IMG/VR virus record: IMGVR_UViG_2675903352_000015
Coordinates: 1-14,377 of that record
Source: a virus
Taxonomy: Duplodnaviria > Heunggongvirae > Uroviricota > Caudoviricetes
DNA length: 14,377 nt
Direction: 5' to 3' (one strand)
In this document: positions 751-14,377 of the stretch, in pieces
How positions within the stretch are numbered: the stretch's first letter is position 1
Layout of the letters: each line of letters begins with the position of its first letter
Made by a program: the position numbers and the translations under genes
The notes under the pieces: model-generated
The model's input: the letters and a program-made list of their open reading frames with translations, nothing else
The model's database searches: none
What the model was told of the DNA's origin: nothing

Positions 751-751
751 G

Positions 752-1030
752 TTACCTCCAGATACGTTGCTGGAATGTGCGGGAAGGACGCGGTGGGCGC
801 TCGGAGTAAGGGAGCCTTACAGAGATTATCCAGTGCAGGCGATCCAGACTGAGATCTTTCTGAACCTCATAGCCACGTCTGCGGTAGCTCTGAATTAGCC
901 ATTCAGCCTGTTCTTCTGTGCATGGAGGGTGCTGATACCAGCGAGTTTTAAATGCGTGCAAACGCCGCCCGTGCCTGCTGGCAAAGACGGCTGAATTATC
1001 AGAATTGTGTAACTTGGTATCGTGCGCCAT
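752..1030 (-). CDS. hypothetical small protein (92 aa from ATG 1030; ORF track extends it to a TTG at 1084)
   Basis: Open frame 752..1084 on minus strand; first ATG at 1030..1028; stop abuts the GGAGG/GTG start of the downstream edge gene, suggesting an operon. No family recognised. Confidence 0.35.
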   Translation of the reverse strand: MAHDTKLHNSDNSAVFASRHGRRLHAFKTRWYQHPPCTEEQAEWLIQSYRRRGYEVQKDLSLDRLHWIISVRLPYSERPPRPSRTFQQRIWR

Positions 1031-1098
1031 CGGTTGTCTCTGCTGGCGCAGCAGGTGCCAGTTGTTCAGGCTGGCGTGCGGCAATATTGTCTCTGATT

Positions 1099-1148
1099 TC
1101 TGTTGTCGTCAACAGACAGCGTGCTATCATCGAATAGTGTTCTATACT
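1099..1148 (+). promoter_or_regulatory. putative parDE promoter with palindromic operator
   Basis: Palindrome CTGTTG-tcgt-CAACAG at 1100..1115; candidate -10 hexamers TATCAT 1125..1130 and TATACT 1143..1148 upstream of the ParD start at 1166. ParD antitoxins typically autoregulate through such palindromes. Confidence 0.4.
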
Positions 1149-1165
1149 ACTCTGTGAGGTTTACC

Positions 1166-1423
1166 ATGCGTACAACCCAACAATTCAGCATTACATTAAC
1201 TAACGAGATGGCTGACATGGTGCGCGCCCGTGTGGCTTCCGGTGCCTATGCTTCAGAAAGTGAGGTCATTCGTGAAGGGCTTCGCGCACTGAATGAGCGC
1301 GATAAAGCAATCGAAGAGTGGTTAACGCATTCAGTCGCCCCCTCTCTTGATTCTATCCGCGAAAATCCAAGCAACGGACGCTCCATTTCACAGGTTCGCG
1401 CCGCGATTCGATCCGGAAAGTAA
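1166..1423 (+). CDS. parD: ParD-family antitoxin (ribbon-helix-helix)
   Basis: 85-aa product from ATG 1166 (GAGG 7 nt upstream); sequence ...MADMVRARVASGAYASESEVIREGLRALNERDKAIEEWL is typical of RHH ParD antitoxins; immediately followed by a ParE-like gene. The ORF-track start at 1103 is an unlikely N-terminal extension. Confidence 0.8.
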   Translation: MRTTQQFSITLTNEMADMVRARVASGAYASESEVIREGLRALNERDKAIEEWLTHSVAPSLDSIRENPSNGRSISQVRAAIRSGK

Positions 1424-1428
1424 TCTGC

Positions 1429-1740
1429 ATGACATATGAAGTCATCATTACTCCTGAGGCCGAACAACAAATAATCAACATGCACAGATATATAACTGAG
1501 AAAGCAGGGAACGTCATTGCTGACAATTATGCCAATGCACTTCTTGATTATCTTGATGGGTTTTCTACATTCCCGCATCGGGGCAATAAACGCGATGATA
1601 TTCGCCAGGGGATGCGGGTAACTCATTTCCGCCACAGAACGATTATTGCTTTTGCCGTTGATGACAATAAAGTTTTTATCGCAGGCGTATACCACGGTGG
1701 GCAAATCTATGAAACCGATTTTTTATCCAGTGCACCGTAA
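1429..1740 (+). CDS. parE: ParE/RelE-family toxin
   Basis: 103 aa; starts 5 nt after the parD stop; C-terminal part (THFRHRTIIAFAVDDNKVFIAGVYHGGQ) matches the ParE/RelE fold pattern; canonical antitoxin-then-toxin order. Confidence 0.8.
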   Translation: MTYEVIITPEAEQQIINMHRYITEKAGNVIADNYANALLDYLDGFSTFPHRGNKRDDIRQGMRVTHFRHRTIIAFAVDDNKVFIAGVYHGGQIYETDFLSSAP

Positions 1741-1780
1741 AACCCCCATCCTTCAGGGCGTGGCGGATATCAAACTTTGT

Positions 1781-2863
1781 TCATTTTCTCTGGCTGATCT
1801 TTACCGGATAACCATCCCGAAGATCAATTAAGTGCTCCGGTTCAGAAGCAAACCATGCATAAGATCCCCACGCCAATTCTGGTATTGCCTTTTTAAAAGG
1901 CAGAGCACTTCTGTCAATAAATGCCGTAAGGAATGCAAGATTTTTCTCGCTGAACCCAGCGTCAATAGCCAAATGAGTGAGAGTAACTTTTCGTTCCCTG
2001 TTTATAGGCCCATCTGTCGCAACTACCTCAGTGAAAACTACAAGCATATCCGAACCCGTTCGGTCCTCTCCCAAATCAATCAAAATAATATCTGGAAGTG
2101 CTTTTGAGGCATCAATATTCAGCCCCAATGCTTTTGCCAATACATCATCCTGAGCAACAACTTTATTCCCAGATTCAGACAACCAGAGCACAGTTGGATT
2201 CTTAAGAAAATTAGGAGCAAAAACTTCGATGACGGCCTTAGCTATTGTACTTGACGGGCCCGGAGCTAAAGTTCTCTTCTCTCCATTTGGGAAAGTGACG
2301 ACTACGGCATCAGCAGCAATCACTGCCCCTGATTTCAATAAACGCAATCTAGCAAGAGCGGCTTTGTTCAAATGATTTTCCTGCCAGGAACTTATTGCAC
2401 TCAGCAGCGAATCTCCTTCAAGCCCAGCATCAAAGAGTGCTGCAAAAGAGCGATTCAAACTGTAACGAGGATGAGAGGATGTGGTGGGTATACCTTTACG
2501 CTCAACAATTGCATTGCAAGGTATTAGGCCATTTTTTATAGTTTCATCACGTATTGGCTCACGCGTATTTTCCGCATACCATGCATCAGCAGGCCTTATC
2601 TTTTGTTTAGAGAAAGTCATCTTTACCCAACTTTCTCTGGACGCATCATCAGTAAGAGCAGCCTGTGAATCTCCCATACTTACAACCTGGCTGGGCCTTA
2701 TCCATCGCCCCAGCCCCTCAACCGCACCAGCATAAAACATGACAAAAATTGTTTTTGCAGCTATTTCCCGAATTAAATATCCACGATTCTCAGTCCCTTC
2801 AGGGAAAATTAATGGTAATCTTTCCCGGATAACATTCAATGGGGGAACAACAGGCAGATTCAT
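1781..2863 (-). CDS. putative type II restriction endonuclease (resembles BsuBI/PstI family, from memory)
   Basis: 360-aa ORF directly downstream of the methyltransferase on the same strand, with ATGA start/stop overlap at 2860..2863; AT-rich composition; size and context match REases paired with Eco57I/PstI-type methyltransferases. Family assignment is from recollection only. Confidence 0.6.
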   Translation of the reverse strand: MNLPVVPPLNVIRERLPLIFPEGTENRGYLIREIAAKTIFVMFYAGAVEGLGRWIRPSQVVSMGDSQAALTDDASRESWVKMTFSKQKIRPADAWYAENTREPIRDETIKNGLIPCNAIVERKGIPTTSSHPRYSLNRSFAALFDAGLEGDSLLSAISSWQENHLNKAALARLRLLKSGAVIAADAVVVTFPNGEKRTLAPGPSSTIAKAVIEVFAPNFLKNPTVLWLSESGNKVVAQDDVLAKALGLNIDASKALPDIILIDLGEDRTGSDMLVVFTEVVATDGPINRERKVTLTHLAIDAGFSEKNLAFLTAFIDRSALPFKKAIPELAWGSYAWFASEPEHLIDLRDGYPVKISQRK

Positions 2864-4692
2864 GCAATCATCACTCCATAGAAACCAGCGATAGTTCTCT
2901 CAATAATCCGTCTGTGGACGCCGGCATCAATTAACGATTGAATCTCCATCACCTGCTCCAGAGAAGGCAACGGGATTGAATTCAATTCATAGGCCGAAAC
3001 AGCAACACTTCCGCTTATACACCTGAACGCCCGATCGACAACATGCGAATTAAGTAGCATATCAATAACATCAGGGCGAACCGCAGAGAACAATCCGTTT
3101 GAATACACAATATTAATATGGTTTTCAACTACTACGCCACCAGTTTCATCTATAAATCCCTGAGGTAAAATCGCAGCTAAAATCCTTCTGTCCTGCTCCT
3201 TCGATGTTGTCCGCTGAACAAGCACACATTCAGATTTTGTCACAAGGAAACCCTGTTGTGGGGTTATATCGATATAGGGAACATGATTTTTTCTGTCTGC
3301 GCTAAAACGGAAACCAGCTGAAGTTATTGATTCCGCCCAGACTAATGGATAGCTATTTTTTCCTTTCGTCGTACGCAACTGCGACTTAAATCGATTCCAG
3401 ACTAACTGACCTGTAGAGACTGAGTATCCCAGATCAGCTAAACGCGTAGACATCTGTTTTAATACATTAAGAAAACAAGCATCATCTTTAACTCGTGGCA
3501 AAAGCCACGTTGCTCCACCTTTTTCTATATCAACATTACCTATTTTCTCAATTTTTGCTTTGTTCAACCCCTTAGGGACAAGTGAGGATACCTGGGCCCG
3601 AACTTTATGTTCTCCCGCCTTGAATGCTGTCAACATTGTTTCCTGGAGAACATCGTCAAAGACCCCATCCCTGTCAGCGACGAAATCAAGGGCATACGGA
3701 GTAGTTTTTTCGGTCAAAAGGGTTCGCAGCGCGGTGAAATACTGCCCACCAAGAAAAGAAGTTGGCGTAAGAAATGCAATAACTCCTGTTTTCTCTTTAA
3801 CCATGCGAACAGCTAAGTCGGTGAACAATCCATATAGATTTGCATGACCAAATAACGAACGAGAATATTTTTCTCTCGTTTTAATATCGAGAGTGACACG
3901 TCCGTAAGGCGGATTCCCTACCACAAGATCATAACCAGAAATTTTATCTTGCTGAAGCGCATCAGCAACAATAATTGTATCTTCAGGCAATCTACGTTTT
4001 ACCTTTACACATAGTGGCATTAGTACAGATTCGAGCAATACCAAACTCATCCAAGCCGCAAATGGATCGATTTCTATCCCCTTTAAACGACGACTGATTC
4101 TCCTCAACATCCATTCAGGGGAAGACCCCTTGTCTTTTTTTAACATTCGAATGGCTACTGGTGCCAAAAATGCACCGCCACCACACGCAGGATCAATAAC
4201 CGATGCATGAGAAAAATCAACACCAGACTTTTCAGCCAGGTCCAAGAGACGCGCTACCAAAGGTGGGGGGGTATAGTAAGCCCCCAATTCCGAACGGTAA
4301 GCGGATGGCAGCATTACCGTATAAATTGACCCAATCAGATATCCAGCGTCCTCCGCCGGAAATTGAGCAATAAGCTCACCTGTTCGTTCAGCGAGCTCGC
4401 GTGCATCACATGGAATGTCTTCTATGTAAACAGTGTGCGGTACTGCCCTCATTTTAATGCTGCTTTTTTGCTTTTTTGCAAGGGTATCCCAATATGCAGC
4501 TACGATGCTGAAGCAGTATGAGCGGGCATGCATCAACCTTGACTGCCCGGTTTTGTAATTGCCCGCATAACCTTTGGCCATGGCTTTACAAGTTTGATAT
4601 CTTTCCAGATTAGAAAACTCATTATCTGTAAAAAAATCAAAATGTTGCACATTCATAATGTAAAATCCTAATGTATCAAACATGCGGGCCAT
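2860..4692 (-). CDS. gamma-class N6-adenine DNA methyltransferase (Eco57I/PstI-like modification subunit)
   Basis: 610 aa; motif X GAYYTPP, motif I DPACGGGAFL (SAM binding), motif IV NPPYGRV in gamma-class order. Start choice is uncertain (ATG 4692 with weak SD; internal ATG at MNVQHF has an AGGA upstream). Confidence 0.85.
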   Translation of the reverse strand: MARMFDTLGFYIMNVQHFDFFTDNEFSNLERYQTCKAMAKGYAGNYKTGQSRLMHARSYCFSIVAAYWDTLAKKQKSSIKMRAVPHTVYIEDIPCDARELAERTGELIAQFPAEDAGYLIGSIYTVMLPSAYRSELGAYYTPPPLVARLLDLAEKSGVDFSHASVIDPACGGGAFLAPVAIRMLKKDKGSSPEWMLRRISRRLKGIEIDPFAAWMSLVLLESVLMPLCVKVKRRLPEDTIIVADALQQDKISGYDLVVGNPPYGRVTLDIKTREKYSRSLFGHANLYGLFTDLAVRMVKEKTGVIAFLTPTSFLGGQYFTALRTLLTEKTTPYALDFVADRDGVFDDVLQETMLTAFKAGEHKVRAQVSSLVPKGLNKAKIEKIGNVDIEKGGATWLLPRVKDDACFLNVLKQMSTRLADLGYSVSTGQLVWNRFKSQLRTTKGKNSYPLVWAESITSAGFRFSADRKNHVPYIDITPQQGFLVTKSECVLVQRTTSKEQDRRILAAILPQGFIDETGGVVVENHINIVYSNGLFSAVRPDVIDMLLNSHVVDRAFRCISGSVAVSAYELNSIPLPSLEQVMEIQSLIDAGVHRRIIERTIAGFYGVMIA

Positions 4693-4751
4693 AACATCTC
4701 ATGGTGGCGCATAGCAAACTGGCCCGAAGAATATCACGCACCAAGTCGATC

Positions 4752-4767
4752 TCATAACCCGTTATGA
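4752..4767. promoter_or_regulatory. 16-bp palindrome TCATAACCCGTTATGA upstream of the restriction-modification operon
   Basis: Perfect inverted repeat CATAAC-cc-GTTATG (4753..4766, extendable by one base each side), about 60-75 bp upstream of the methyltransferase start in a 214-bp AT-rich intergenic region; position fits an operator. Confidence 0.3.
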
Positions 4768-4906
4768 CAATAAATCTTTGTAGCTGAACTCACTTGGTGA
4801 TTTGTCAATCATTCCTGGCCTCCAGTTCGTCCTGAATCTCTTTATCGAGTTCACCGTATTTGTTAGTCCTCATCACTCACGACTTGACTTCCAGAAATAA
4901 CCTTGA

Positions 4907-5263
4907 TTATTCGGGGCTATATTTTGTCACCCTGCGTATCCGCGCTTTCGCATTACGCTCAATCTGGATTAGCTTTTCTATATTTTTTCGCCTTTCCCGC
5001 TCCTCCTGGCGCAAGAGCCTTACATCATCTGCCAGTCTGGTTTCTCTTTTCGCCACAGAGAGCATCCAGTCAAATGGCTCCACAACTGCACCGCAGATTT
5101 TACAGCGGACCTGACGCTCTTTTTCGTCAACCCGGACAGAAGCGTGATGGCAATATGGTCTTTCCGATGGCTCATAAAGAAAATTAACCTGATTACGAGG
5201 GTTATCCTCTTTTACCGGAAATAAAACAATATTGCTTAACTCATCTTCTGGTTTTATTTCCAT
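4907..5263 (-). CDS. hypothetical protein with putative zinc ribbon (C-H-H ... C-x2-C) and basic C-terminus
   Basis: 118 aa from ATG 5263..5261, preceded by AAGGAGAGGAGC on the minus strand. The ORF-track start (GTG 5320) directly abuts the upstream stop and lacks an SD. Motif YCHHASVRVDEKERQVRCKICG. No family recognised. Confidence 0.5.
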   Translation of the reverse strand: MEIKPEDELSNIVLFPVKEDNPRNQVNFLYEPSERPYCHHASVRVDEKERQVRCKICGAVVEPFDWMLSVAKRETRLADDVRLLRQEERERRKNIEKLIQIERNAKARIRRVTKYSPE

Positions 5264-5320
5264 GCTCCTCTCCTTTGATGCGAATGCCAGCGGTAATTGA
5301 AGCCTGATAGCTAATTTCAC

Positions 5321-5743
5321 TCACAGTACCGCCTCCTGAAAATCACCCTGATAGAAAGCCAGTACACGCTGCATAACTTCACTCTTCCGGCACTCGCGAC
5401 AGATTATGTTCTGATGTCTGTCGTAGCGGCGTATTTCTCCGTCTGGTAATGACCAGATAAGGTCCGGATCAACCGCAGATGGTTTCTTCAGCTTTGCCCT
5501 TGAGAGCTTTTTACGGGCATTTTGCCAGTCCTTACGCGCCTGTTCAGACGGGAATAACCCGTAACCAGAGTTGCATACATCGCCACTGGCAACCAGCTCT
5601 CTGGCCAGAACGCTCATCAGATATCTTGTTGCCCCAGTTTTAGCTTCCAGTTGTCGTAACGTCTCGCGCCCACTCTGGCGTACGAGTTCAACAACCTGCC
5701 CTTTAATTTTTTCCCGCTCTTCTTGTGTAAAAACTTTTGCCAC
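5321..5743 (-). CDS. hypothetical protein (possible winged-helix/HTH) in the position where a helicase loader would be expected
   Basis: 140 aa; GTG start 5743..5741 with AGGAGGG upstream; lies 40 bp downstream of the O-like gene; no Walker A motif, so not DnaC-like. Confidence 0.5.
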   Translation of the reverse strand: MAKVFTQEEREKIKGQVVELVRQSGRETLRQLEAKTGATRYLMSVLARELVASGDVCNSGYGLFPSEQARKDWQNARKKLSRAKLKKPSAVDPDLIWSLPDGEIRRYDRHQNIICRECRKSEVMQRVLAFYQGDFQEAVL

Positions 5744-5783
5744 AAGCCCTCCTGAAAATTACCTCATGACCAGAAATTAACAC

Positions 5784-6749
5784 TTACCCCCTGAAGCCCG
5801 GCGGAATTTCGTTATCCGGTTCAGAAATGTGATTCACGCAACGCTGTACAGGCGAACGCCCCAGACGAATAACCAGCTCATCCCATTTTTCGCGAAGCTT
5901 TGACGGGCTCATGACGTTTTTTACCCAGAATGGATCCCGCTGTACCCGACCAAACATTTCGCAAATTTGTCTGTGAGTTCTGCCATCCAGCATCCGCATT
6001 GTGCGCACATCATTGGCCCATGCAGTCCAGTTTGGTTCTTTCGGTCGCATGATTTCGCCATCATCGCTGGCAGCCTGCTCGTAAAGACTCACGATTCGCC
6101 CCCAGATCCACTGCGCACACGCCAAATCTTCCTGGCTGCCCCACTGGCGTTTTTTCGCACTGAACACAACAGCGTCAGGGTGTCGGGTTAAAAAATCCTG
6201 TTCAGCCGTCTGCCTGTCCGGTTGCGAAGATTCCGGACGAGAAGTGTTTTTATTCTCTGTAGTAATCTCTGTTGTATTCTCTGTAAGATCATCGGGCCAT
6301 TTTGACCCGATGACATTGGGTCGTTTTGAACCAATGGAGCGTGTCATTTTGGCTCCTTCCATCGTGTCATTTTGACCTGATGGAGCGGCGCATTTTGACA
6401 TGATGGATTCGCTCACTTTGCCACCATCTAAAAGCTCGCTCTCGTAATTAATCGTGTAAAAATTAGTCATATCACGCTTTGATTTGTTGAGCTTTTCACA
6501 ACGCAAAAGCCCCAGCGTTTTCAGACTTGCAAATGCGCGTTTTAACGTTGACTCTGACCAGAAAGGGAACTGTTCCAGCCATTGTTCTGTTGTGTTATAA
6601 ATCCAGCGAACACCATCACATTCCATGCCGGAACCGGTATCTCTCAACCAGTAATGCAGCTGCTGCAACACGATGGCTTCGTTCAGACCAATTTTCATCG
6701 CCAGCTGCGTGTTTATAACCAGCGGGCGTTCAGCAAAAAGGAGCTTCAT
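5784..6749 (-). CDS. phage replication initiation protein (lambda O / Rac YdaU-like replisome organiser)
   Basis: 321 aa; strong SD (GGGGGAGGGG) before ATG 6749; follows the Cro-like and YdaT-like genes in the rightward-operon position; an iteron array and AT-rich repeats lie inside the central linker of the gene, as in lambda O/ori. Confidence 0.65.
   Translation of the reverse strand: MKLLFAERPLVINTQLAMKIGLNEAIVLQQLHYWLRDTGSGMECDGVRWIYNTTEQWLEQFPFWSESTLKRAFASLKTLGLLRCEKLNKSKRDMTNFYTINYESELLDGGKVSESIMSKCAAPSGQNDTMEGAKMTRSIGSKRPNVIGSKWPDDLTENTTEITTENKNTSRPESSQPDRQTAEQDFLTRHPDAVVFSAKKRQWGSQEDLACAQWIWGRIVSLYEQAASDDGEIMRPKEPNWTAWANDVRTMRMLDGRTHRQICEMFGRVQRDPFWVKNVMSPSKLREKWDELVIRLGRSPVQRCVNHISEPDNEIPPGFRG
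6250..6430. repeat. putative replication origin: six 23-bp-spaced iterons plus three tandem 12-bp AT-rich repeats
   Basis: TTTTG cores at 6300, 6324, 6347, 6370, 6393 and (CTTTG) 6416, unit consensus about GTCATTTTGACCnGATGGAG; adjacent TATTCTCTGTAG-like 12-mers with TCTCTGT at 6254, 6266, 6278. Confidence 0.6.
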
Positions 6750-6770
6750 CCCCTCCCCCAGAACACGTTA

Positions 6771-7196
6771 TCAATGCGCCACCACGGCATTTCCCGCCGG
6801 ACCACCACGATTCATCTGATTGAAACCAGCAATTACCACCGCGACAAGTTCATCAGCGTCTCTCACCAGTCGTTCATGCGTATCCACCAGTTCCCGAAAA
6901 TAATCGGAACTGTGGCTGCGCATCCAGGCCACCAGCGGAGGTGGCATTGCCTTTTCGATCGCTGGTAACAAAGCCTGAATTTTTTTAACCGCATCAGGGG
7001 TGTCTTTCTCCACCCAGCGGAAAATTTTCTGAGTATTGCGAGCCAGGGCTTCCGGATGGCTGTCGTCATACAGTTCCGGGAATGTCATACCCAGCTCAAA
7101 ATAAGCCCGGGTTATTTCAGCTGCCGGAACTTTTTCACCGTCCGGACGCGCCCAGGCATTCATCGCCATGCGGATGTGTTCATGCTTGATTTTCAT
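6771..7196 (-). CDS. YdaT-like protein (Rac prophage family; role assignment from context)
   Basis: 141 aa; overlaps the end of the upstream Cro-like gene by 17 bp; SD GGGGA upstream; position and size match Rac ydaT. Confidence 0.5.
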   Translation of the reverse strand: MKIKHEHIRMAMNAWARPDGEKVPAAEITRAYFELGMTFPELYDDSHPEALARNTQKIFRWVEKDTPDAVKKIQALLPAIEKAMPPPLVAWMRSHSSDYFRELVDTHERLVRDADELVAVVIAGFNQMNRGGPAGNAVVAH

Positions 7197-7452
7197 GAAT
7201 CATCCCCGGTGTATTTGGTGTGTTAACTTTACATCCAACAGGTAAACCGTCGGTTGGGTTAGGATAAATATCAGGGCGAATTTCATGCGGGGTAACTTCC
7301 CACTTCATTAGCTGGCATAACGGAATTACCTGCTTTGGGGGAACACCAAAGCTAAACCATTGCCAAACAGTCTGTTGAGCAACTCCCATATAACGACCTA
7401 TTTCAGCTTGAGTGTGTTTCTGCCTAATTTTTTCGCGAGTGCTATCTAGCAT
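7180..7452 (-). CDS. Cro/YdaS-like HTH transcriptional regulator
   Basis: 90 aa; strong SD (GAGGAGGG) before ATG 7452; HTH segment TQAEIGRYMGVAQQTVWQW; divergent from the repressor gene across an operator-bearing intergenic region. Confidence 0.65.
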   Translation of the reverse strand: MLDSTREKIRQKHTQAEIGRYMGVAQQTVWQWFSFGVPPKQVIPLCQLMKWEVTPHEIRPDIYPNPTDGLPVGCKVNTPNTPGMIHENQA

Positions 7453-7481
7453 TTTGCCCTCCTCTAAAAAACTATAAGCAA

Positions 7482-7523
7482 ATCCTACAATAAAAAACTG
7501 TATGCGATCAACAGTTTTTTATT
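7482..7523 (-). promoter_or_regulatory. pR-like promoter with operator palindrome O1 (AAAAACTGT-N9-ACAGTTTTT)
   Basis: Perfect 13-bp inverted repeat AATAAAAAACTGT (7489..7501) / ACAGTTTTTTATT (7511..7523); on the minus strand TTGATC (-35, 7511..7506), 18-bp spacer, TAGGAT (-10, 7487..7482) upstream of the Cro-like gene. Confidence 0.5.
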
Positions 7524-7561
7524 GTGATGCTTTTAACAGTATTTGCCTGTAAAATTGGAAA

Positions 7562-7963
7562 ATGATGAACGCCCTAGAAGTATCTATGTACAGAATCAGC
7601 AAGCTTCTTCAGGAAACTGGATGGAGCCAGGCTGAGCTTGCCCGTAGAATTGGTGTGACACAGCAAACTGTTCAACAATGGGTCAGCGGTAAGGCAACAC
7701 CTAAAGCCTCAAGTTTGGATAAACTGGTTGAGGTTACAGGGCATCCATTGCATTGGTTTTTATTGCCTCCTGAAGAGAGGGAGCAAATTTTCACCCCTGA
7801 TACGATGAAAATTGGTCCTCGCCAACGCGAACTGCTCCAAGCTTTTAGTGCGTTTCCTGAGGAAGACCAGGAAAAAATGCTTCAAGAAATCAAAGACAAG
7901 AAAAAATCAATGGAAGAAACCATTGCCCGATGGTTAGCGGCACAAAAAAGCCGCCTGGCGTGA
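7562..7963 (+). CDS. CI/RacR-like prophage repressor (XRE-family HTH, no S24 peptidase domain)
   Basis: 133 aa; HTH SQAELARRIGVTQQTVQQWVSGKATP; sits between the two operator-bearing divergent promoters in the same arrangement as lambda cI; no C-terminal Ser/Lys autocleavage motif recognised. Confidence 0.7.
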   Translation: MMNALEVSMYRISKLLQETGWSQAELARRIGVTQQTVQQWVSGKATPKASSLDKLVEVTGHPLHWFLLPPEEREQIFTPDTMKIGPRQRELLQAFSAFPEEDQEKMLQEIKDKKKSMEETIARWLAAQKSRLA

Positions 7964-7990
7964 CCACTGAACAAGAAGAGGAGTTATGCC

Positions 7991-8068
7991 ATGAGTACAG
8001 CCCTTTCTCCGATAGTTTCAGAATTCGAAACAACCGAACAAGAAGACAGTTATAACTTCAAGCATTGA
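7991..8068 (+). CDS. possible small ORF (25 aa, acidic) downstream of the repressor
   Basis: ATG 7991 preceded by GAGGAG with a 7-nt spacer; MSTALSPIVSEFETTEQEDSYNFKH; lies between the repressor stop and the terminator. Could be non-coding. Confidence 0.25.
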   Translation: MSTALSPIVSEFETTEQEDSYNFKH

Positions 8069-8133
8069 AATTGCAAATATTGTGCATGCCCGACGACAAT
8101 TTACCTTCTCTATCTAAGCAGAACAATTTTCAT

Positions 8134-8159
8134 ACTCCCTCATTCGAGGGAGTTTTTTT
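8134..8159 (+). terminator. rho-independent terminator ending the repressor transcript
   Basis: 8-bp stem ACTCCCTC / GAGGGAGT with ATTC loop followed by TTTTTT (8154..8159); U-run present only for the plus-strand transcript. Confidence 0.65.
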
Positions 8160-8173
8160 GCCTAAACCAACAA

Positions 8174-8213
8174 TTAAAAACTGTTGACACAAAACAGTTT
8201 TTAATTGTAGATT
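8174..8213 (+). promoter_or_regulatory. pL-like promoter with operator palindrome O2
   Basis: TTGACA (8184..8189), 18-bp spacer, TAGATT (8208..8213); perfect 12-bp inverted repeat TTAAAAACTGTT (8174..8185) / AACAGTTTTTAA (8193..8204) overlapping the -35; same CTGT-N9-ACAG core as O1. Confidence 0.55.
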
Positions 8214-8224
8214 ATTTTCACCAA

Positions 8225-8237
8225 CCCCCCCCCCCCC
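8225..8237. repeat. homopolymeric C13 tract
   Basis: Thirteen consecutive C at 8225..8237, starting about 12 bp downstream of the pL-like -10 hexamer, in the transcript start/5' leader region. Confidence 0.9.
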
Positions 8238-8389
8238 ACAGAACGCCGGGCAATACTTCGAGTTACCCGGCAGTGGTCAGGGGTTAAGTAGCCAGCCCGA
8301 GGCGTAAGAACATGACGGCAGGGTTCAACTTTAACTATGCAGCAGGTTTTTGTTCCGCTACCCCGGCGTTAAGGGGAAATGAGGTCAAC

Positions 8390-8545
8390 ATGGATACTAT
8401 CGATCTTGGCAACAACGAATCTCTGGTGTGCGGCGTGTTCCCAAACCAGGACGGCACATTCACCGCGATGACGTATACCAAAAGCAAAATGTTTAAAACC
8501 GAAAATGGTGCCCGTCGCTGGCTGGAAAGAAACTCAGGTGAGTGA
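8390..8545 (+). CDS. small prophage protein (51 aa; resembles Rac/Qin YdaF/YdfA-type proteins from memory)
   Basis: ATG 8390 with GAGG 5 nt upstream; an in-frame upstream ATG at 8312 (GAGG 9 nt upstream) would give 77 aa, so the start is ambiguous. Confidence 0.5.
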   Translation: MDTIDLGNNESLVCGVFPNQDGTFTAMTYTKSKMFKTENGARRWLERNSGE

Positions 8546-8546
8546 T

Positions 8547-8675
8547 ATGGATTTCGACACAATCATGGAAAAGGCTTACGAAGAATACTTCGAAGGCCTT
8601 GCCGAAGGCGAAGAGGCTCTCAGCTTCAGTGAGTTTAAACAGGCGCTTTCCAGCCCGGCAAAATCTAACGGCTGA
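8547..8675 (+). CDS. small acidic protein (42 aa)
   Basis: ATG 8547 one nt after the preceding stop (coupled); MDFDTIMEKAYEEYFEGLAEGEEALSFSEFKQALSSPAKSNG. The ORF-track alternative (GTG 8542, other frame, Arg-rich low complexity) looks less protein-like. Confidence 0.4.
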   Translation: MDFDTIMEKAYEEYFEGLAEGEEALSFSEFKQALSSPAKSNG

Positions 8676-8704
8676 TAAGCGAAGCAGCACCGCGAGGAAT
8701 CAGT

Positions 8705-8923
8705 ATGCAGAAACGAGAACCCGTCATCATCGCGCCAGACTATACCGATGATGAACTTTATGAGTGGATGCACCAGAAAATTAAGGCAGCGCAGGACCTG
8801 AAATGGGCCAATGAAGCCATGGCTAAGCAGGCCGAAAATCTGTCTGCTCTGGAAAAAGATATTACCAATCTGGAAAAAGCAGCGGCATTAAGCATTGCCA
8901 GAATGATTACATACCCACGTTAA
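8705..8923 (+). CDS. hypothetical helical protein (72 aa)
   Basis: ATG 8705 with GAGGA 6 nt upstream; heptad-like, probably coiled-coil sequence; no family recognised. Confidence 0.5.
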   Translation: MQKREPVIIAPDYTDDELYEWMHQKIKAAQDLKWANEAMAKQAENLSALEKDITNLEKAAALSIARMITYPR

Positions 8924-8945
8924 TAGCTAACCAACGAGGCTAATA

Positions 8946-9353
8946 ATGGAATTTAAAGATTTACCAAAAGAAATCCAGACAATTGCTGCAACGACTCTCG
9001 GTGATAGTCTGGTGAAAATTGACCCGGCATACACCAAAAAAGAAACCATCGATAATATGGTTCGTAATGTGCGCAATGCTTTTTCTGGGCTATATGGTTC
9101 TGATAATCAAAAGCAGGAAAGCGATGTTAATAAACGGGTAATTTCTGTTTGCGTGAATGGCCATGTTCTTTCATCAATCAAAACAGAAACGGCGACAGTC
9201 TTCGATTGCCTTTGCATTGTACAGAGCCTTGTTGATGCCCTGTTTCGTTCAGTGAATTTAGAAAATGATGCAAATCTGCGAGGGCGCACAATAGCACATC
9301 CATATGCACATACTTTAGGCTCTGTGGATATCAAAGATCCCACAAATCTTTAA
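8946..9353 (+). CDS. hypothetical protein (135 aa) in an AT-rich accessory insert
   Basis: ATG 8946 with GAGG 8 nt upstream; visibly AT-richer than flanking prophage genes; no transmembrane segment or known motif recognised. Confidence 0.55.
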   Translation: MEFKDLPKEIQTIAATTLGDSLVKIDPAYTKKETIDNMVRNVRNAFSGLYGSDNQKQESDVNKRVISVCVNGHVLSSIKTETATVFDCLCIVQSLVDALFRSVNLENDANLRGRTIAHPYAHTLGSVDIKDPTNL

Positions 9354-9564
9354 TGAAATAGTTAACGCGAATTGTACTTGCTCTTTCAGTTGCTTTCAGA
9401 ATACGCGTTGAAACTGCTGGCGGTAATTTGGTATTCCATTTATTAAAATCATGCCCGGGAAAGTACTCTTCGAAAATACTTTTAACTGCAGACTCGCCTA
9501 TTGAAATGCTGCTTACCATGCGATTTTGATAAAGGCATTTAGCAATAAGAGTTGATTTTAACAT
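9331..9564 (-). CDS. hypothetical protein (77 aa), convergent with and overlapping the 3' end of the 135-aa gene
   Basis: ATG 9564..9562 preceded by AGGAGG (spacer GTGA) on the minus strand; AT-rich; 3' end overlaps the convergent gene by 23 bp. Confidence 0.45.
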   Translation of the reverse strand: MLKSTLIAKCLYQNRMVSSISIGESAVKSIFEEYFPGHDFNKWNTKLPPAVSTRILKATERASTIRVNYFIKDLWDL

Positions 9565-9957
9565 TCACCCTCCTGAGGGTTGGTAATTAAGGAGTTCTCC
9601 ACGGGTGAAATGGAGTGCGTGCGCCGGACACGGGTGAACATCCGGCACTGACAGTTTACTGAAAGGATATTTCTCTGAAAAGTCAGAGCATAACGCGAAA
9701 GCGCACGGCGAGGTTGCTGGTTCATAGATAGCCTGTCGTTAAATTTTCGTCGACCGTGCGCTTCCGGTTGTGGCACTCCGCGAAATGGCGCGGCGGTAAG
9801 TATGGCGGGGTTATTCCTTCCCCCGTTGAGGACACCGGGTTGTCAGGTTGACCATACGCTTAAGTGACAACCCCGCTGCAACGCCCTCTGTTATCAATTT
9901 TCTGTGACGTTTGGCGGCATCTGTTTGCCCATGAACTGATGTCCGCCCTTTTTAAAG

Positions 9958-10105
9958 TGAATTTTGTGATGCGGTGAATGCGGCTAAGCGCACGCGGAAC
10001 AGTTAAAGCTAAAAACAGTGTTATGGGTGGATTCTCTGTATCCGGCGTTAATTGTTAACTGGTTAACGTCACCTGGAGGCACCAGGCACCGCATCACAAA
10101 ATTCA
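9958..10105. repeat. 19-bp perfect inverted repeat pair flanking a 110-bp segment
   Basis: TGAATTTTGTGATGCGGTG at 9958..9976 and its exact reverse complement at 10087..10105; right arm ends 4 nt before the GAGGA SD of the ORF starting at 10123; internal segment contains GTTAAC-tg-GTTAAC. Confidence 0.85.
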
Positions 10106-10122
10106 TTGTTGAGGACGCGATA

Positions 10123-10311
10123 ATGGAAACGTTATTACCAAACGTTAATACGTCTGAAGGTTGTTTTGAAATTGGTGTCACTATCAGCAATCAGATATTT
10201 ACTGAAGATGCCATTAATAAAAGAAAACACGAACAGGAACTGCTAAATAAAATATGCATTGTTTCGATGCTGGCCCGTTTACGTCTGATGCAAACAGGAT
10301 GCAGGCAATGA
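10123..10311 (+). CDS. hypothetical small protein (62 aa) in the kil-region position
   Basis: ATG 10123 with GAGGA 7 nt upstream; the ORF-track GTG 10018 start would read through the inverted-repeat arm and is less likely. Confidence 0.4.
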   Translation: METLLPNVNTSEGCFEIGVTISNQIFTEDAINKRKHEQELLNKICIVSMLARLRLMQTGCRQ

Positions 10312-10406
10312 ATACGGCATTTGTACTCGTTCTGACTGTTTTTTTGTTTCTGGTGAACCGATTGATCTTGTTATTGACATACATGACTCAATGGAAGAAT
10401 GCATGA
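10308..10406 (+). CDS. possible hydrophobic micro-protein (32 aa, single predicted TM helix)
   Basis: ATG 10308 overlaps the upstream TGA (ATGA coupling); MNTAFVLVLTVFLFLVNRLILLLTYMTQWKNA. Below the length cut-off of the ORF track. Confidence 0.3.
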   Translation: MNTAFVLVLTVFLFLVNRLILLLTYMTQWKNA

Positions 10407-10498
10407 CTGCCGCGGCAGAGCAAAAAATTCCCGGGAACTGTTATCCTGTCGACAAAATTATTCGCATGAACAATAACGAAATCCCGGCAGGCCTTTAA
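10403..10498 (+). CDS. possible micro-ORF (31 aa; 35 aa if started at ATG 10391)
   Basis: ATG 10403 overlaps the preceding TGA (second consecutive ATGA coupling); MTAAAEQKIPGNCYPVDKIIRMNNNEIPAGL. Confidence 0.25.
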   Translation: MTAAAEQKIPGNCYPVDKIIRMNNNEIPAGL

Positions 10499-10590
10499 AA
10501 CAGCCCCATAATAAATATCCGGTTTTATTTTTATATGTCAGCAATGGCAGGGATTTGTCCACCCTTAAATCTGTAATGAGGTAAAACAAA

Positions 10591-13071
10591 ATGAGTAAAG
10601 TCTTTATTTGCGCCGCCATTCCGGACGAACAGGCAACAGCAGAAGGCGCCAAACCTGTGGCCACTGCCATTGAAGCAGGCGACGAACGCCGGGCAAGAGC
10701 CAAATTTAGCTGGTTATTTCTGGAACAATACCCGGAAGCTCAGGACTGTGCTTATAAATTTCTTGTCTGCGAGGATAAACCCGGCATGGCCCGCCCTGCT
10801 CTCGATTCCTGGGATTCCGAATATATGCAGGAAAACCGCTGGAATGAGGAGTCGGCTTCCTTTGTTCCGGTCGACCCTGAACCGGACGCAGAAATTGTTA
10901 ACTTTAATCAGTTATCTGACGACAAGCGGGCTGCTGTCCTTGTCAGGTTCGGTACACATGAAAACATCACCGTGGATATGGTCATCAATGCAAGCGGGCT
11001 TCTCGGCGATGACGAGATGACGACTTTTGATGGACACCTCGCTGAAGCAATTATCCGGACCAGAGAAATTAACGCCATGTATCCAGAGCGTCAGATTGAG
11101 TACATCAACGATGCCAGACGTGATTTAAAACCAACAGCCAAATGGCCCGACGTTCAGGCGTATTTTCTCGAACGTAAAAAACGCATGGAAAAGGAGCGCA
11201 AAGAAGGTGGCGCATATAATTCCGTCGTCGATCTTGCCCGCGCCAGAGTCAACCGGCAAGGCACTGAAAACTCTGCAGGAAAAACTGACTCCGTAACTGC
11301 TGTCATTCGTCGCGAATACAGGCAGACATGGAAAACACTGGATGAAGAACTGGCCTACGCTTTCTGGCCTGGTGATATTGATGCCGGAAACATTGACGGC
11401 AGCATCCATCGCTGGGCAAAAAATGAAGTTATCGACAAAGATCGCGAAGACTGGAAGCGTATTTCCGCATCAATGCGCAAACAACCTGATGCCGTTCGCT
11501 ACGACCGTCAGACTATTTTTGGCCTTGTCCGTGAGCGTCCGATCGACATTCACAAAGATCCCGTGGCGCTGAACAAATACATCACTGAATACCTGGCGAC
11601 AAAGGGCGTGTTTGAGGATGAAGAAACAGACCAGAGCACTGCTGATATTCTCCAGCCGTCAGCAGCACAAACTGATGCAGTGGAAACTGAAGTATCTGAT
11701 ACCCAAAAAAATGAAAGCGCGCTGGAAACTGAACCATCTGTAGAGCGTGAGGGGCCGTTCTACTTCCTCTTCACCGATAAGGATGGCGAAAAATATGGTC
11801 GTGCAAACAAACTTTCTGGTCTGAATAAGGCGCTGGCTGCAGGGGCTACTGAAATCACGAAAGAAGAATATTTTGCCCGTAAAAACGGCACGTACTCAGG
11901 TTCACAACAAAATACTGGTGCATCTGACACGACCGCACAACCAGAGCCGGTAAAAGTTACCGCTGACGAAGTAAACAAAATTATGCAGGCAGCCAATATC
12001 AGCCAGCCTGACGCCGATAAGTTGCTTGCTGCCTCTCGCGGAGAATTTGTTGCAGGGATTAGCGACCCGAATGATCCGAAATGGGTGAAGGGGATTGAAA
12101 CCCGCGATTCTGTAAACCAGAACCAGCAAGAATCGGAACAGAACGACCAGAAAGCGGAACAAAACAGTCAAAATGCGTTACAAAACGAGCCAGAAACGAA
12201 ACAACCTGAGGCAGTAGCGCAACAGGAACCGGAAAAAGTCTGCACCGCCTGCGGTCAGAGCGGTGGCGGCAACTGCCCTGATTGTGGCGCGGTGATGGGC
12301 GACGCAACATACCAGGAAACATTCGATGAAGAGAATCAGGTTGAAGTTCAGGAAAATGATCCGGAGGAAATGGAAGGCGCTGAACATCCACACAAGGAGA
12401 ATGCTGGCAGCGCTCAGGACCACGCCAGCGATAATGAAACTGGTGAGACGGCAGATCCCTTAATTGTGGTGAACGGTCATCACGTTATCACATCCACCAG
12501 CAGAGTGTGGTACCACCTGATGATCGACCTTGAAACAATGGGAACCAACACCAATGCGCCCATCGTGGTTATTGGTGCGGTTTTCTTCGACCCACAAACA
12601 GGGGAAATCGGGCCAGTATTTTATATCGTTATCAGTCTGACTGACGCAATGAATACAGGGGCTGCTCCTGACGGTGGAACCATCAAATGGTGGCTGAAGC
12701 AGTCCAGTGAAGCCAGAGCTGCCATTTTAACAGACCAGGTAAAACTGAAGGATGCCCTTTCGCGGTTTCGGGAGTTCATCAACGAATACTCAGATGAAAA
12801 ATTCGTTCAGGTATGGGGTAATGGTGCAACTTTCGATAACGCAATTTTGCGCACCTCATACGAACGTCTGGACATCCCCTGCCCGTGGCGCTACCACAAC
12901 GATCGCGATGTACGCACAATCGTTGAGCTGGGAAAAACAATCGACTTTGATGCTAGAACCGTTATTCCATTCGAAGGCGTTCGCCACAATGCACTGGATG
13001 ACGCCCGTCACCAGGCAAAATACGTTTCAGCAATCTGGCAAAAACTGATCCCGAATCCGGTTGATTTTTAA
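10591..13071 (+). CDS. RecE-like prophage exonuclease: RecE-type N-terminal/central region and Cys4 zinc ribbon fused to a DnaQ-like DEDDh 3'-5' exonuclease domain
   Basis: 826 aa; GAGGT 8 nt upstream. Segment DKLLAASRGEFVAGISDPNDPKWVKGI...CTACGQSGGGNCPDCGAVMGDATYQETFDEE closely matches Rac RecE as I recall it. C-terminus has DEDDh motifs: MIDLETMG (D646, E648), WGNGATFDNAIL (D749), HNALDDARH (H799, D803/D804). Confidence 0.8.
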   Translation: MSKVFICAAIPDEQATAEGAKPVATAIEAGDERRARAKFSWLFLEQYPEAQDCAYKFLVCEDKPGMARPALDSWDSEYMQENRWNEESASFVPVDPEPDAEIVNFNQLSDDKRAAVLVRFGTHENITVDMVINASGLLGDDEMTTFDGHLAEAIIRTREINAMYPERQIEYINDARRDLKPTAKWPDVQAYFLERKKRMEKERKEGGAYNSVVDLARARVNRQGTENSAGKTDSVTAVIRREYRQTWKTLDEELAYAFWPGDIDAGNIDGSIHRWAKNEVIDKDREDWKRISASMRKQPDAVRYDRQTIFGLVRERPIDIHKDPVALNKYITEYLATKGVFEDEETDQSTADILQPSAAQTDAVETEVSDTQKNESALETEPSVEREGPFYFLFTDKDGEKYGRANKLSGLNKALAAGATEITKEEYFARKNGTYSGSQQNTGASDTTAQPEPVKVTADEVNKIMQAANISQPDADKLLAASRGEFVAGISDPNDPKWVKGIETRDSVNQNQQESEQNDQKAEQNSQNALQNEPETKQPEAVAQQEPEKVCTACGQSGGGNCPDCGAVMGDATYQETFDEENQVEVQENDPEEMEGAEHPHKENAGSAQDHASDNETGETADPLIVVNGHHVITSTSRVWYHLMIDLETMGTNTNAPIVVIGAVFFDPQTGEIGPVFYIVISLTDAMNTGAAPDGGTIKWWLKQSSEARAAILTDQVKLKDALSRFREFINEYSDEKFVQVWGNGATFDNAILRTSYERLDIPCPWRYHNDRDVRTIVELGKTIDFDARTVIPFEGVRHNALDDARHQAKYVSAIWQKLIPNPVDF

Positions 13072-13137
13072 TGTTCAACCCTGATCGCCGTCTCCGAATT
13101 ATATTGGCGGCGGTCATGCTGTAAGGCACGTGACCAC

Positions 13138-13389
13138 ATGTACGAATTAACTCTATCGCCAGCAGAGATTCAAGAGATCACGAAATACGAGCGATACACA
13201 AAACAGCAACACCAGTTAAGGCTGCACGGTATCCCATTTGTAATCGGTCCTAAAAACGAACCAATAGTTCTTCGCAGGGATATTCCACACGGACTGACTA
13301 CGATGCCAAAAGCACCTGAACTAGTTTCCGCTGAACCCGATTTTGAGGCGCTGAACAATGGGAAGACCAAGAAAAAACAAAAAAGATAA
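13138..13389 (+). CDS. xis: excisionase (lambda Xis-like)
   Basis: 83 aa; N-terminus MYELTL and lysine-rich C-terminus NNGKTKKKQKR resemble lambda Xis (MYLTL...NGKKAKS) from memory; overlaps the integrase start by 32 bp as in lambda. Confidence 0.55.
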   Translation: MYELTLSPAEIQEITKYERYTKQQHQLRLHGIPFVIGPKNEPIVLRRDIPHGLTTMPKAPELVSAEPDFEALNNGKTKKKQKR

Positions 13390-14377
13390 TGCACTACCAC
13401 CGCGTGTTAGATCGAATGGTTACAGTTACGTGTGGAAACCCGAAGGAAGCACAAGAACTATAGGGCTCGGAAGAGTACGGGAAACCAGCGTAGCTAAAGT
13501 CTGGCAAAATTATGAACTGGAAAAAGCAAAACTCCACAACATAATGACCGTCGCTAAATTATGGCACATGTTTATGGACTCCCCTGCATTTACAGAACTG
13601 GCACCCCGAACCCAAAAAGATTATCGACAACATCAGAGGGCGTTGCTGGCGGTATTCGGTAAAGTGCTTGCTGATAATGTAAAAATTGAGCAAGTAAGAA
13701 TTTTCATGGATAAGCGGGGACTTGAGAGCAAGACCCAGGCAAACCATGAGCTGGCAAGCCTGAGTCGCGTATACGGATGGGGATATGAGCGTGGGTATGT
13801 GAAAAATAATCCATGCAAAGGCGTCAGAAAATTCACGCTTAAAGCCCGCACTGTTTACATAACCGATGAACAGTATGCGGCGATATACGCGGAAGCAATT
13901 CCACAGTTACGCATTGCAATGGAGATTTCCTATCTTTGTGCGGCAAGGCTCGGTGATGTTCTCGAGCTGAAATGGCAGGATATTATGGATAAAGGGATCT
14001 ACATTGAGCAAAACAAAACAGGCACCAAACAAATCAAGGAATGGTCTCCGCGATTACGTACGGCGATCCAGTTAGCCCGAAATGTATCTTCCGGCATATG
14101 CGGGTATGTGATCAGCACAACCAAAGGCGGGAAAGTCATCGCTAAAACGCTGAACAACTGGTGGAATCAGGCTAAACGCGCAGCCGAGCAAAAAGCAGGC
14201 GTTCCGTTCGGATGTAATTTTCATGACATAAAAGCCAAAGGGATTTCAGATTATGAAGGCAGCAGCCGCGACAAACAAATTTTCAGTGGGCATAAAACAG
14301 AAAACCAGGTGTTGATTTATGATCGCAAAACAAAAATCACCCCAACACTGGATTTGCCGCTTGTGGTCAGTAAGTAG
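13358..14377 (+). CDS. int: tyrosine integrase, lambda Int family
   Basis: 339 aa; N-terminal MGRPRK...LPP...NGY like lambda Int; box I Arg (AARLGDVLELKW); box II FHDIK...SGHK...LIYDRK with candidate catalytic Tyr; stop codon TAG is the last three bases of the window. Confidence 0.9.
   Translation: MGRPRKNKKDNALPPRVRSNGYSYVWKPEGSTRTIGLGRVRETSVAKVWQNYELEKAKLHNIMTVAKLWHMFMDSPAFTELAPRTQKDYRQHQRALLAVFGKVLADNVKIEQVRIFMDKRGLESKTQANHELASLSRVYGWGYERGYVKNNPCKGVRKFTLKARTVYITDEQYAAIYAEAIPQLRIAMEISYLCAARLGDVLELKWQDIMDKGIYIEQNKTGTKQIKEWSPRLRTAIQLARNVSSGICGYVISTTKGGKVIAKTLNNWWNQAKRAAEQKAGVPFGCNFHDIKAKGISDYEGSSRDKQIFSGHKTENQVLIYDRKTKITPTLDLPLVVSK

Follow-up and report, generated by a model that had tools for sequence, protein, structure and literature searches.

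A 13-nucleotide cytosine run at the head of a Rac/Qin-type prophage early-left transcript is probably a variant strand of a conserved folded leader RNA

We examined a run of 13 cytosines (C13) in a 14,377-nucleotide stretch of viral DNA (positions 1 to 14,377 of IMG/VR record IMGVR_UViG_2675903352_000015; hereafter the window), which is the immunity and early-left region of an Escherichia coli Rac/Qin-type lambdoid prophage. The run lies at exactly 8225-8237 on the plus strand, near the predicted start of transcription from a pL-like promoter. Our overall reading, to which we assign a probability of about 0.8, is that C13 is a variant strand of a conserved folded leader RNA and not a regulatory switch. 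In the structure that we predict, this 13-nucleotide segment (the 13-mer) supplies the 5' side of both basal helices, P1 and P2, in a three-helix hairpin of ~65 nt (8228-8284).

A preliminary description of the window had reported a 13-C run in the transcription start region of a pL-like promoter of an early-left operon, 12 nt past a -10 hexamer TAGATT, and had called tracts of this kind rare; each of these observations holds. Direct reading of the window confirms the run, and a promoter scan recovers TTGACA-18-TAGATT (a 10/12 match) with its -10 at 8208-8213 and a predicted transcription start near A8220, which puts C13 at predicted positions +6 to +18 of the transcript. The synteny from repressor to integrase agrees with the promoter assignment, and "pL-like" is a fair term. 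The order at the site is TAGATTATTTTCACCAA, then C13 (CCCCCCCCCCCCC), then ACAGAACGCC, which over a longer span reads ACAGAACGCCGGG. C13 is the only homopolymer of at least 8 bases in the whole window, and base composition predicts ~1.5e-4 runs of its length. Across 3.09 Mb of related prophage DNA no other C or G run is as long (the runner-up has 11), and none of the five other runs of at least 10 is at the homologous position. The run is downstream of the -10 and upstream of the first AUG (8312), and so falls in neither the -35/-10 spacer nor an open reading frame (ORF).

Comparison with homologous leaders indicates how the run is related to the rest of its family. Exact-motif scans of IMG/VR and GTDB genomes yielded 133 copies, and further scans together with nhmmer brought the set to 309. 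The family consensus at the site is (AU)ACCAA-CCCACCCCGCCCC-ACAGAA(C/U)GC(A/C)GGG, whereas the window reads ACCAA-CCCCCCCCCCCCC-ACAGAACGCCGGG; both have 13 positions, and they differ only by A8228C and G8233C. In K-12 Rac (downstream of racR), O157:H7 and IHE3034 the site reads ...ACC(A)ACCCACCCCGCCCCACAGAACGCC.... None of the others among the 309 has as many as 10 C in a row, and a single other lineage has C at the G/A position, giving C9. A scan for at least 10 C followed by ACAGAAYGC found no match in IMG/VR, and in JGI metagenomes it returned 25 contigs, none of them homologous. These comparisons show C13 to be a private two-substitution allele, in this prophage, of a conserved C-rich 13-mer (CCCACCCCGCCCC) whose length is unchanged. 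A8228C and G8233C together removed both interruptions and so produced a homopolymer.

The preliminary description had further proposed that tract length tunes early-left expression by slippage, and had suggested comparing tract lengths in related prophages. This part is not supported, as the tract has the length of the interrupted motif, and neither the 309 homologues nor the scanned collections contain a length series. The broader explanation behind it, in which C13 is a contingency locus that slips during replication or under RNA polymerase (RNAP) and whose length sets early-left expression, is highly improbable. An uninterrupted run of 13 C or G is long enough to be hypermutable, as in genes whose phase varies through poly-C/G tracts, and C13, beyond the ~8 nt at which a run can slip, is both within this range and exceptional for related prophage DNA. 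Against this, relatives show no graded differences in tract length, the tract is outside any spacer or ORF, and a change of 1-2 nt would only shift the register of a helix that is already predicted to slide, with no obvious on/off effect. Selection for mutability would also be expected to remove interruptions, yet family members as a rule have them. In E. coli, the known cases of transcriptional slippage are mostly at A/T runs, with far fewer at C runs.

The best match to the window among 5,426 complete E. coli genomes, CAU16175, bears on this explanation from the other side. It is 98.7% identical and 15 nt shorter over the stretch, and at the site it reads TTTTCCCCCCAGAACGCC, an uninterrupted C6 for which a pure run is a simpler starting point than the interrupted consensus; this is the sole hint of instability. 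The only length change seen is a complex 15-nt deletion, by which TTTTCCCCCCAGAACG (locus L001, 2205-2235) takes the place of the window's TTTTCACCAA-C13-ACAGAACG. An independent deletion, or a fault in assembly, would explain the C6 form just as well. In its minimum free energy (MFE) structure CAU16175 keeps the CCCC/GGGG pairing and a shortened P2 (CCA/UGG), and the predicted hairpin may tolerate the loss. No complete E. coli genome reaches 99% identity over 8165-8295, the best being 96.1% in a record without a long C run.

We also considered, as the preliminary description had suggested, that C13 might be a sequencing or assembly artefact. On this account the true site is CCCACCCCGCCCC or another interrupted form whose two interruptions were wrongly called as C. 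None of the other copies or collections searched has the allele, C-rich stretches of low complexity are error-prone, and CAU16175 shows its odd 15-nt difference exactly here. Homopolymer errors, however, typically alter length, whereas here length is kept and two specific substitutions would be needed; moreover, a second lineage has independently changed G/A to C (C9), and the flanks are otherwise clean. We consider an artefact quite unlikely.

Evidence that the 13-mer is one strand of a folded RNA came from divergent copies. BLAST of 8100-8400 matched 4,163 genomes, and the leader is >90% conserved within E. coli from 8220 to ~8390, which leaves too little variation for E. coli copies alone to give a structure signal. 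We drew on a phage isolated on Actinobacillus and on many IMG/VR contigs retrieved by variant motifs. The stem (P3) that carries the conserved loop CAAUACNNNGAGUUA varies on both sides across these copies (GCCGGG/CCCGGC, GGCUGGA/UCCAGCC, CGCUGAG/CUCAGCG, GCAAAG/CUUUGC and CAGA/UCUG), and the segment homologous to the 13-mer covaries with the segment just 5' of an invariant UAAGUAGCC. The P2 pairs with their accompanying P1 pairs are CCAC/GUGG with (A)CCCC/GGGG(U), CAG/CUG with GCCC/GGGC, and CGCAU/AUGCG with GCUC/GGGC; the others are GAAGC/GCUUC with CAUC/GAUG, GGCAAA/UUUGCC with GCAAC/GUUGC, and GGCAAU/AUUGCC with AGC/GCU. MFE folds computed independently for the 66-nt 5' domains of eight divergent families gave the same nested P1-P2-P3 arrangement in most cases.

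We quantified these changes on a structural alignment (A3) built segment by segment from 31 sequences of the eight families, with only the junctions padded; MAFFT left A3 unchanged. Standard pairs occupy 86.0% of its cells compared with 63.3 ± 1.3% after shuffling (0 of 500 shuffles reach the observed value), and sliding the partner strand by 1-3 columns reduces pairing to 25-44%. Compensatory changes are present at 17 of 18 pairs, with a covariation score of 0.489 vs 0.154 (again 0 of 500 shuffles). By helix, compensatory changes affect 5/5 pairs of P1 (96.5% of cells paired), 5/6 of P2 (94.3%) and 7/7 of P3 (73.7%). RNAalifold run on gapped A3 recovered P1, P2 and the inner part of P3.

The position of the hairpin is conserved as well. 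Among 136 upstream contexts with a good sigma-70 match, 126 have 34-40 nt between the end of the -10 and the apical loop (37 in the window), and this spacing holds across more than 15 unrelated -35/-10 combinations. P1 is at ~+9 and the hairpin ~8 nt past the predicted transcription start. Roughly 35 of 40 evenly spaced BLAST rows align only from query position 121-139 (window 8220-8238) onward; because homology begins at ~8220, the conserved module starts at the predicted transcript start and any sequence can precede it. The hairpin is thus tied to the 5' end of the transcript, as placed by predicted start sites, whatever the promoter. Compensatory pairs and a promoter-independent position are both found, and together they argue for a conserved structured cis-leader RNA.

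What, then, do the two substitutions do to the fold? In the consensus, A8228 pairs with U8284 as the outermost pair of P1 and G8233 is in an internal loop, so A8228C and G8233C are predicted to cost one terminal pair and to change one unpaired base. Folding 8220-8290 with C13 or with the consensus 13-mer gave MFE values of -23.4 and -25.7 kcal/mol, respectively, a loss of ~2 kcal/mol. The probability of the canonical P1 register fell to 0.30 from 0.99 and that of P2 to 0.92 from 0.98, while P3 remained at 1.00 in both; with C13 the G-run still pairs somewhere within the tract (0.99). C13 is therefore predicted to make the P1 register ambiguous while leaving the domain in place. Under any of the leader functions that we considered, these folds suggest an allele that is near-neutral or mildly weakening, not a switch.

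Several observations weigh against this reading. A3 was fitted by hand to the per-family MFE structures and its pair statistics lean toward the model; the independent per-family folds are the unbiased part of the structure evidence. When unfitted, unpadded sequences were aligned with MAFFT and passed to RNAalifold, only inner P3 was recovered, MAFFT having misaligned the variable helices. Shuffled sequences fold at least as well as the entire 176-nt leader (z = +1.1), and in the full-length equilibrium fold long-range pairings compete with the 5' domain, P3 having a probability of 0.26-0.37; the hairpin model therefore depends on the RNA folding as it is transcribed. Wobble pairs favour neither strand, with 7 G.U vs 7 A.C in P1 and P2. 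Finally, the C6 form of CAU16175 could reflect instability of a pure tract or a region that assemblies tend to get wrong.

The C-richness of the run raises the further explanation that the 5' end of the transcript is a Rho loading (rut) site that ends early-left transcription and that C13 strengthens it. Poly(C) is the best ligand of the primary binding site of Rho, and in E. coli families the first ~25 nt are C-rich and G-poor, with substitutions that rarely bring in G. Rho-dependent termination is known to silence kil in Rac, but the mapped terminator, trac, is inside racR (PMC4150792), which places it upstream of this leader. The C-rich stretch spans only ~20 nt, compared with ~60-80 nt of unstructured C-rich, G-poor RNA for rut, and is predicted to pair with 8273-8284. 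In the wider family the equivalent strand is GCAACAGGCAAA, GCAUCGACGAAGC, GCUCCAACGCAU and others, each covarying with its 3' partner; C-richness is absent from families B-H while pairing is kept. We rejected rut as the conserved function on the ground that pairing is conserved and composition is not, and regard it as a very unlikely account of C13.

The function that we favour, tentatively and with the odds still against it, is that of a cis-acting anti-polarity device. The first ~65 nt would fold at once, hiding a C-rich strand that in E. coli would otherwise be ideal for Rho; ribosomes would then load at ~+93, so that little of the 170-nt leader would be left exposed to Rho or 5'-end-dependent decay. 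We lean toward this proposal because Rho is known to silence Rac kil, because the Shine-Dalgarno (SD) sequence and AUG are invariant while the body of the ORF is unconstrained, because pairing is conserved rather than C-richness, and because in relatives of the N type the short ORF ends just before boxA. It has to contend with the presence of the element upstream of nutL and N in those relatives, where antitermination is already provided.

Two other functions carry less weight with us than anti-polarity. By analogy with HK022 put, the hairpin could bind the transcribing RNAP in cis and make it resistant to terminators, C13 then being a variant of an RNAP-binding RNA. This would account for read-through of an N-less Rac/Qin-type early-left operon, and the window's operon has neither an N-like gene nor boxA; sequence conservation of the loop and tail is what a binding site for a macromolecule would show; and HK022 putL, likewise a structured RNA of ~65-70 nt, begins no more than a few nt from the pL start (PMC9378689). 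Yet the leader has no sequence similarity to the HK022 immunity region, its architecture differs from that of put, the function would be redundant where the element precedes bona fide boxA/boxB and N-like genes, and no strong intrinsic terminator is predicted on the plus strand from 8380 to 14377. A put-like antiterminator is, in our judgment, improbable. A site for RNase III processing or for transcript stability is possible, the hairpin having internal loops and a size like those of phage processing signals.

The element is far more widespread than the homopolymer. It is present in most E. coli genomes, K-12 Rac included, where the copy is at ~NC_000913.3 1419460-1419620 on the minus strand, behind TTGACA-17-TATAGT. 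The curated MG1655 annotation has nothing between racR and ydaG. No Rfam family matches the window at gathering score; relaxing the threshold to an E of 10 over 8100-8450 brings up nothing but noise, and 10 divergent loci likewise have no match at the element. The literature on RacR, YdaT, DicA and OxyS-kilR that we searched makes no mention of the leader, and searching the literature by sequence strings returned unrelated primer coincidences only. ydaF, ydaG and kilR are induced 40-70-fold when RacR is perturbed in Rac, and the regulation of the racR-proximal operons beyond the repressor has been called uncharacterised (PMC11014345).

Two candidate identities were set aside. Prophage anti-small RNAs of the AgvB/AsxR class map downstream of PR'. 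A template-strand G-quadruplex (GGGGCGGGGTGGGTGG) would have only three G-runs of at least 3 in most E. coli variants, and families B-H lack such runs altogether.

Relatives in family F place the element beside a canonical antitermination system. There it is followed by boxA (CGCUCUUUAACA / CGCTCTTTAACA) and a boxB-like hairpin with a GAAAA loop, and then by a lambda-like stem (GGGGUGUGUG / GGGGTGTGTG...CACACACC) and an N-like gene. Each unit is downstream of a repressor gene, and two units occur in tandem. Since the element co-occurs with nut and N in this family, it is a separate, more promoter-proximal module and not a substitute for nut. In IMG/VR contig L301 (400-4800), and also in L295, L324 and L291, there are two tandem same-strand immunity modules, each with a cro-like gene (minus strand), a repressor gene (plus strand), a promoter, the leader hairpin, boxA/boxB and an N-like gene; this arrangement suggests tandem prophages or a duplicated immunity region. 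Actinobacillus phage vB_Apl-pPE4 (locus L160, 1440-1660), reported from Actinobacillus pleuropneumoniae, encodes a DicA-like repressor, Kil and exonuclease VIII and has the leader element; its leader matches E. coli prophages exactly over long blocks and is of a type common in IMG/VR contigs.

Taken by itself the homopolymer is of little weight: it is a private allele, its predicted effect on structure is modest, and nothing marks it as a switch. The leader RNA, in contrast, heads the early-left transcript of the commonest type of E. coli cryptic prophage (Rac/Qin relatives), which governs the toxic kilR and dicB as well as recET and int, and it is unannotated in K-12 and absent from Rfam. It is doubtful, though worth stating, that the three-helix leader is an undescribed family of cis-acting phage RNAs that, independently of N, targets the transcription complex or Rho. 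If true, this would be a second, put-independent route to early-operon antitermination or anti-polarity, and would explain expression of kil, dicB, recET and int from N-less elements after derepression. A leader with testable helices and a natural variant offers a handle on regulation of the operon, for which K-12 Rac is a tractable system.

The coordinates of the leader and its surroundings are collected in Table 1.

Table 1. Features of the leader region, with positions in the window
Feature	Positions	Strand	Basis
Palindrome, 16-bp arms (ACAATTAAAAACTGTT...AACAGTTTTTAATTGT), overlapping the -35	8170..8208	.	inverted-repeat scan
pL-like sigma-70 promoter, predicted: TTGACA 8184-8189, 18-nt spacer, TAGATT 8208-8213	8184..8213	+	promoter scan
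5' flank ACCAACCC	8220..8227	+	window coordinates
C13 run, the window's form of the conserved motif CCCACCCCGCCCC with A8228C and G8233C	8225..8237	+	sequence, homologue comparison
P1 5' strand CCCCC (consensus ACCCC), predicted to pair with 8280-8284 GGGGU	8228..8232	+	folds, structural alignment
Internal loop between P1 and P2, CCC (consensus GCC), opposite 8277-8279 UCA	8233..8235	+	folds, structural alignment
P2 5' strand CCAC, predicted to pair with 8273-8276 GUGG	8236..8239	+	folds, structural alignment
AGAA between P2 and P3	8240..8243	+	window coordinates
P3 5' strand CGCCGGG, predicted to pair with 8266-8272 CCCGGCA	8244..8250	+	divergent copies, structural alignment
15-nt apical loop CAAUACUUCGAGUUA (family consensus CAAUACNNNGAGUUA)	8251..8265	+	invariant columns
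3' strands: P3 8266-8272, P2 8273-8276, P1 8280-8284	8266..8284	+	folds, structural alignment
Invariant tail UAAGUAGCCAGCCYGAGGCRUANGAACAUGA(C/A)GGCAG, 37 nt	8285..8321	+	invariant columns, all families
Small tail hairpin GCC/GGC: 8291-8293 with 8301-8303	within 8285..8321	+	
SD-like GAGG 8299-8302, 9 nt before AUG 8312	within tail	+	
Leader ORF opened by the conserved AUG, here running in frame into ydfA	8312..8389	+	sequence
Second hairpin CCCC 8361-8364 / GGGG 8373-8376, loop GGCGUUAA	8361..8376	+	covariation
ydfA (DUF1391), first annotated early-left gene	8390..8545	+	annotation

Downstream of the hairpin, the conserved AUG of the window is in frame with the ydfA ATG at 8390, giving a 77-amino-acid ORF (8312-8545). 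The leader ORF is fused to ydfA in this way in many E. coli copies as well, with internal frameshifts in some. Its length ranges from 6 to 26 codons overall, with 6-9 in divergent families and 18-20 in Rac-type copies. In relatives with ACCCGG in place of ACCCCGG (8360-8366), the leader ORF stops at the TAA of GCGTTAAGG after 18-20 amino acids, and the YdfA PHROG profile has an N-terminus 19 residues longer than the 51-amino-acid form. Coding alone does not account for the leader's conservation, since the length and sequence of the ORF vary, frameshifts occur, and nucleotide conservation extends beyond it. If the ORF is used at all, it would be the act of translation that matters and not the product. 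The stem of the second hairpin also covaries (CCCC/GGGG, CCC/GGG, GCCG/CGGC, GCC/GGC and CCGC/GCGG) around a conserved GGCGWYAA loop; a conserved GTTCCGC precedes it, and it is just 5' of the ydfA SD (GAGG 8381-8384). On inspection, the apical loop, tail and second-hairpin loop showed no consistent complementarity that would support a kissing interaction or pseudoknot.

Upstream, the gene for a repressor of the HTH_3/CI type (7562-7963, plus strand) faces YdaS-like and YdaT-like genes on the minus strand. The repressor side continues with a relB remnant, a terminator-like hairpin (8134-8159) and, just downstream of it, the promoter. Between 7964 and 8133 there is only a 5' relB remnant (~7992-8057), as in CAU16175, while most relatives keep relB-relE between repressor and promoter. 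The palindrome at 8170-8208 is near-perfect and centred on the -35 hexamer, and a terminator scan also flags a hairpin there; it is probably the operator of the upstream helix-turn-helix repressor. After ydfA come small genes of the ydfB/ydfC type, a dicB-like ORF (10018-10311), an 826-amino-acid exonuclease, an excisionase and an integrase. DicF is not detected in the window at Rfam gathering score and is present in a related locus (L191, 7204-7255). On the minus strand, an N6-methyltransferase of the Eco57I/MmeI type (2860-4692) adjoins a restriction-endonuclease-like ORF (1781-2863), and 1781-4692 looks like a restriction-modification cargo module within the prophage.

Like the phase-variable poly-C/poly-G tracts of Neisseria, Haemophilus and Campylobacter, C13 is an uninterrupted C/G run of more than 9 nt near a promoter; unlike them, it is outside the spacer and any coding frame, its homologues lack length polymorphism, and its ancestral state is interrupted. 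Like rut sites (lambda tR1 rutA/rutB), the 5' end is C-rich, G-poor RNA early in a lambdoid transcript, in a prophage type silenced by Rho; unlike them, its C-rich strand is short and paired, and its composition varies across the family. The element occupies the same slot as the lambda N leader (nutL boxA/boxB and an RNase III-sensitive stem), between pL and the first early-left gene, but boxA is missing from the window's leader (best match 7/12 in 8220-8400), in contrast to lambda nut, and its operon has no N-like gene. A short AUG-AAG-G open frame just before boxA is shared with the lambda leader; we know of no three-helix 5' domain in lambda.

HK022 put (putL/putR) is a cis-acting processive antiterminator. 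Nhmmer profile and motif searches of HK022 22000-31000 found no homologue of the leader, and BLAST of the leader against 50,697 phage records did not match HK022. The put RNA comprises two long stems in a V shape with a triplex in stem I, ~70 nt from +2/+3 of the pL transcript (PMC9378689), whereas the leader is predicted to form one three-helix hairpin followed by a 3-bp hairpin. As in put, parts of the leader that are predicted to be unpaired are conserved in sequence, and as with putL, a structured RNA of ~65-70 nt is placed next to the promoter at the start of a lambdoid early operon that lacks N.

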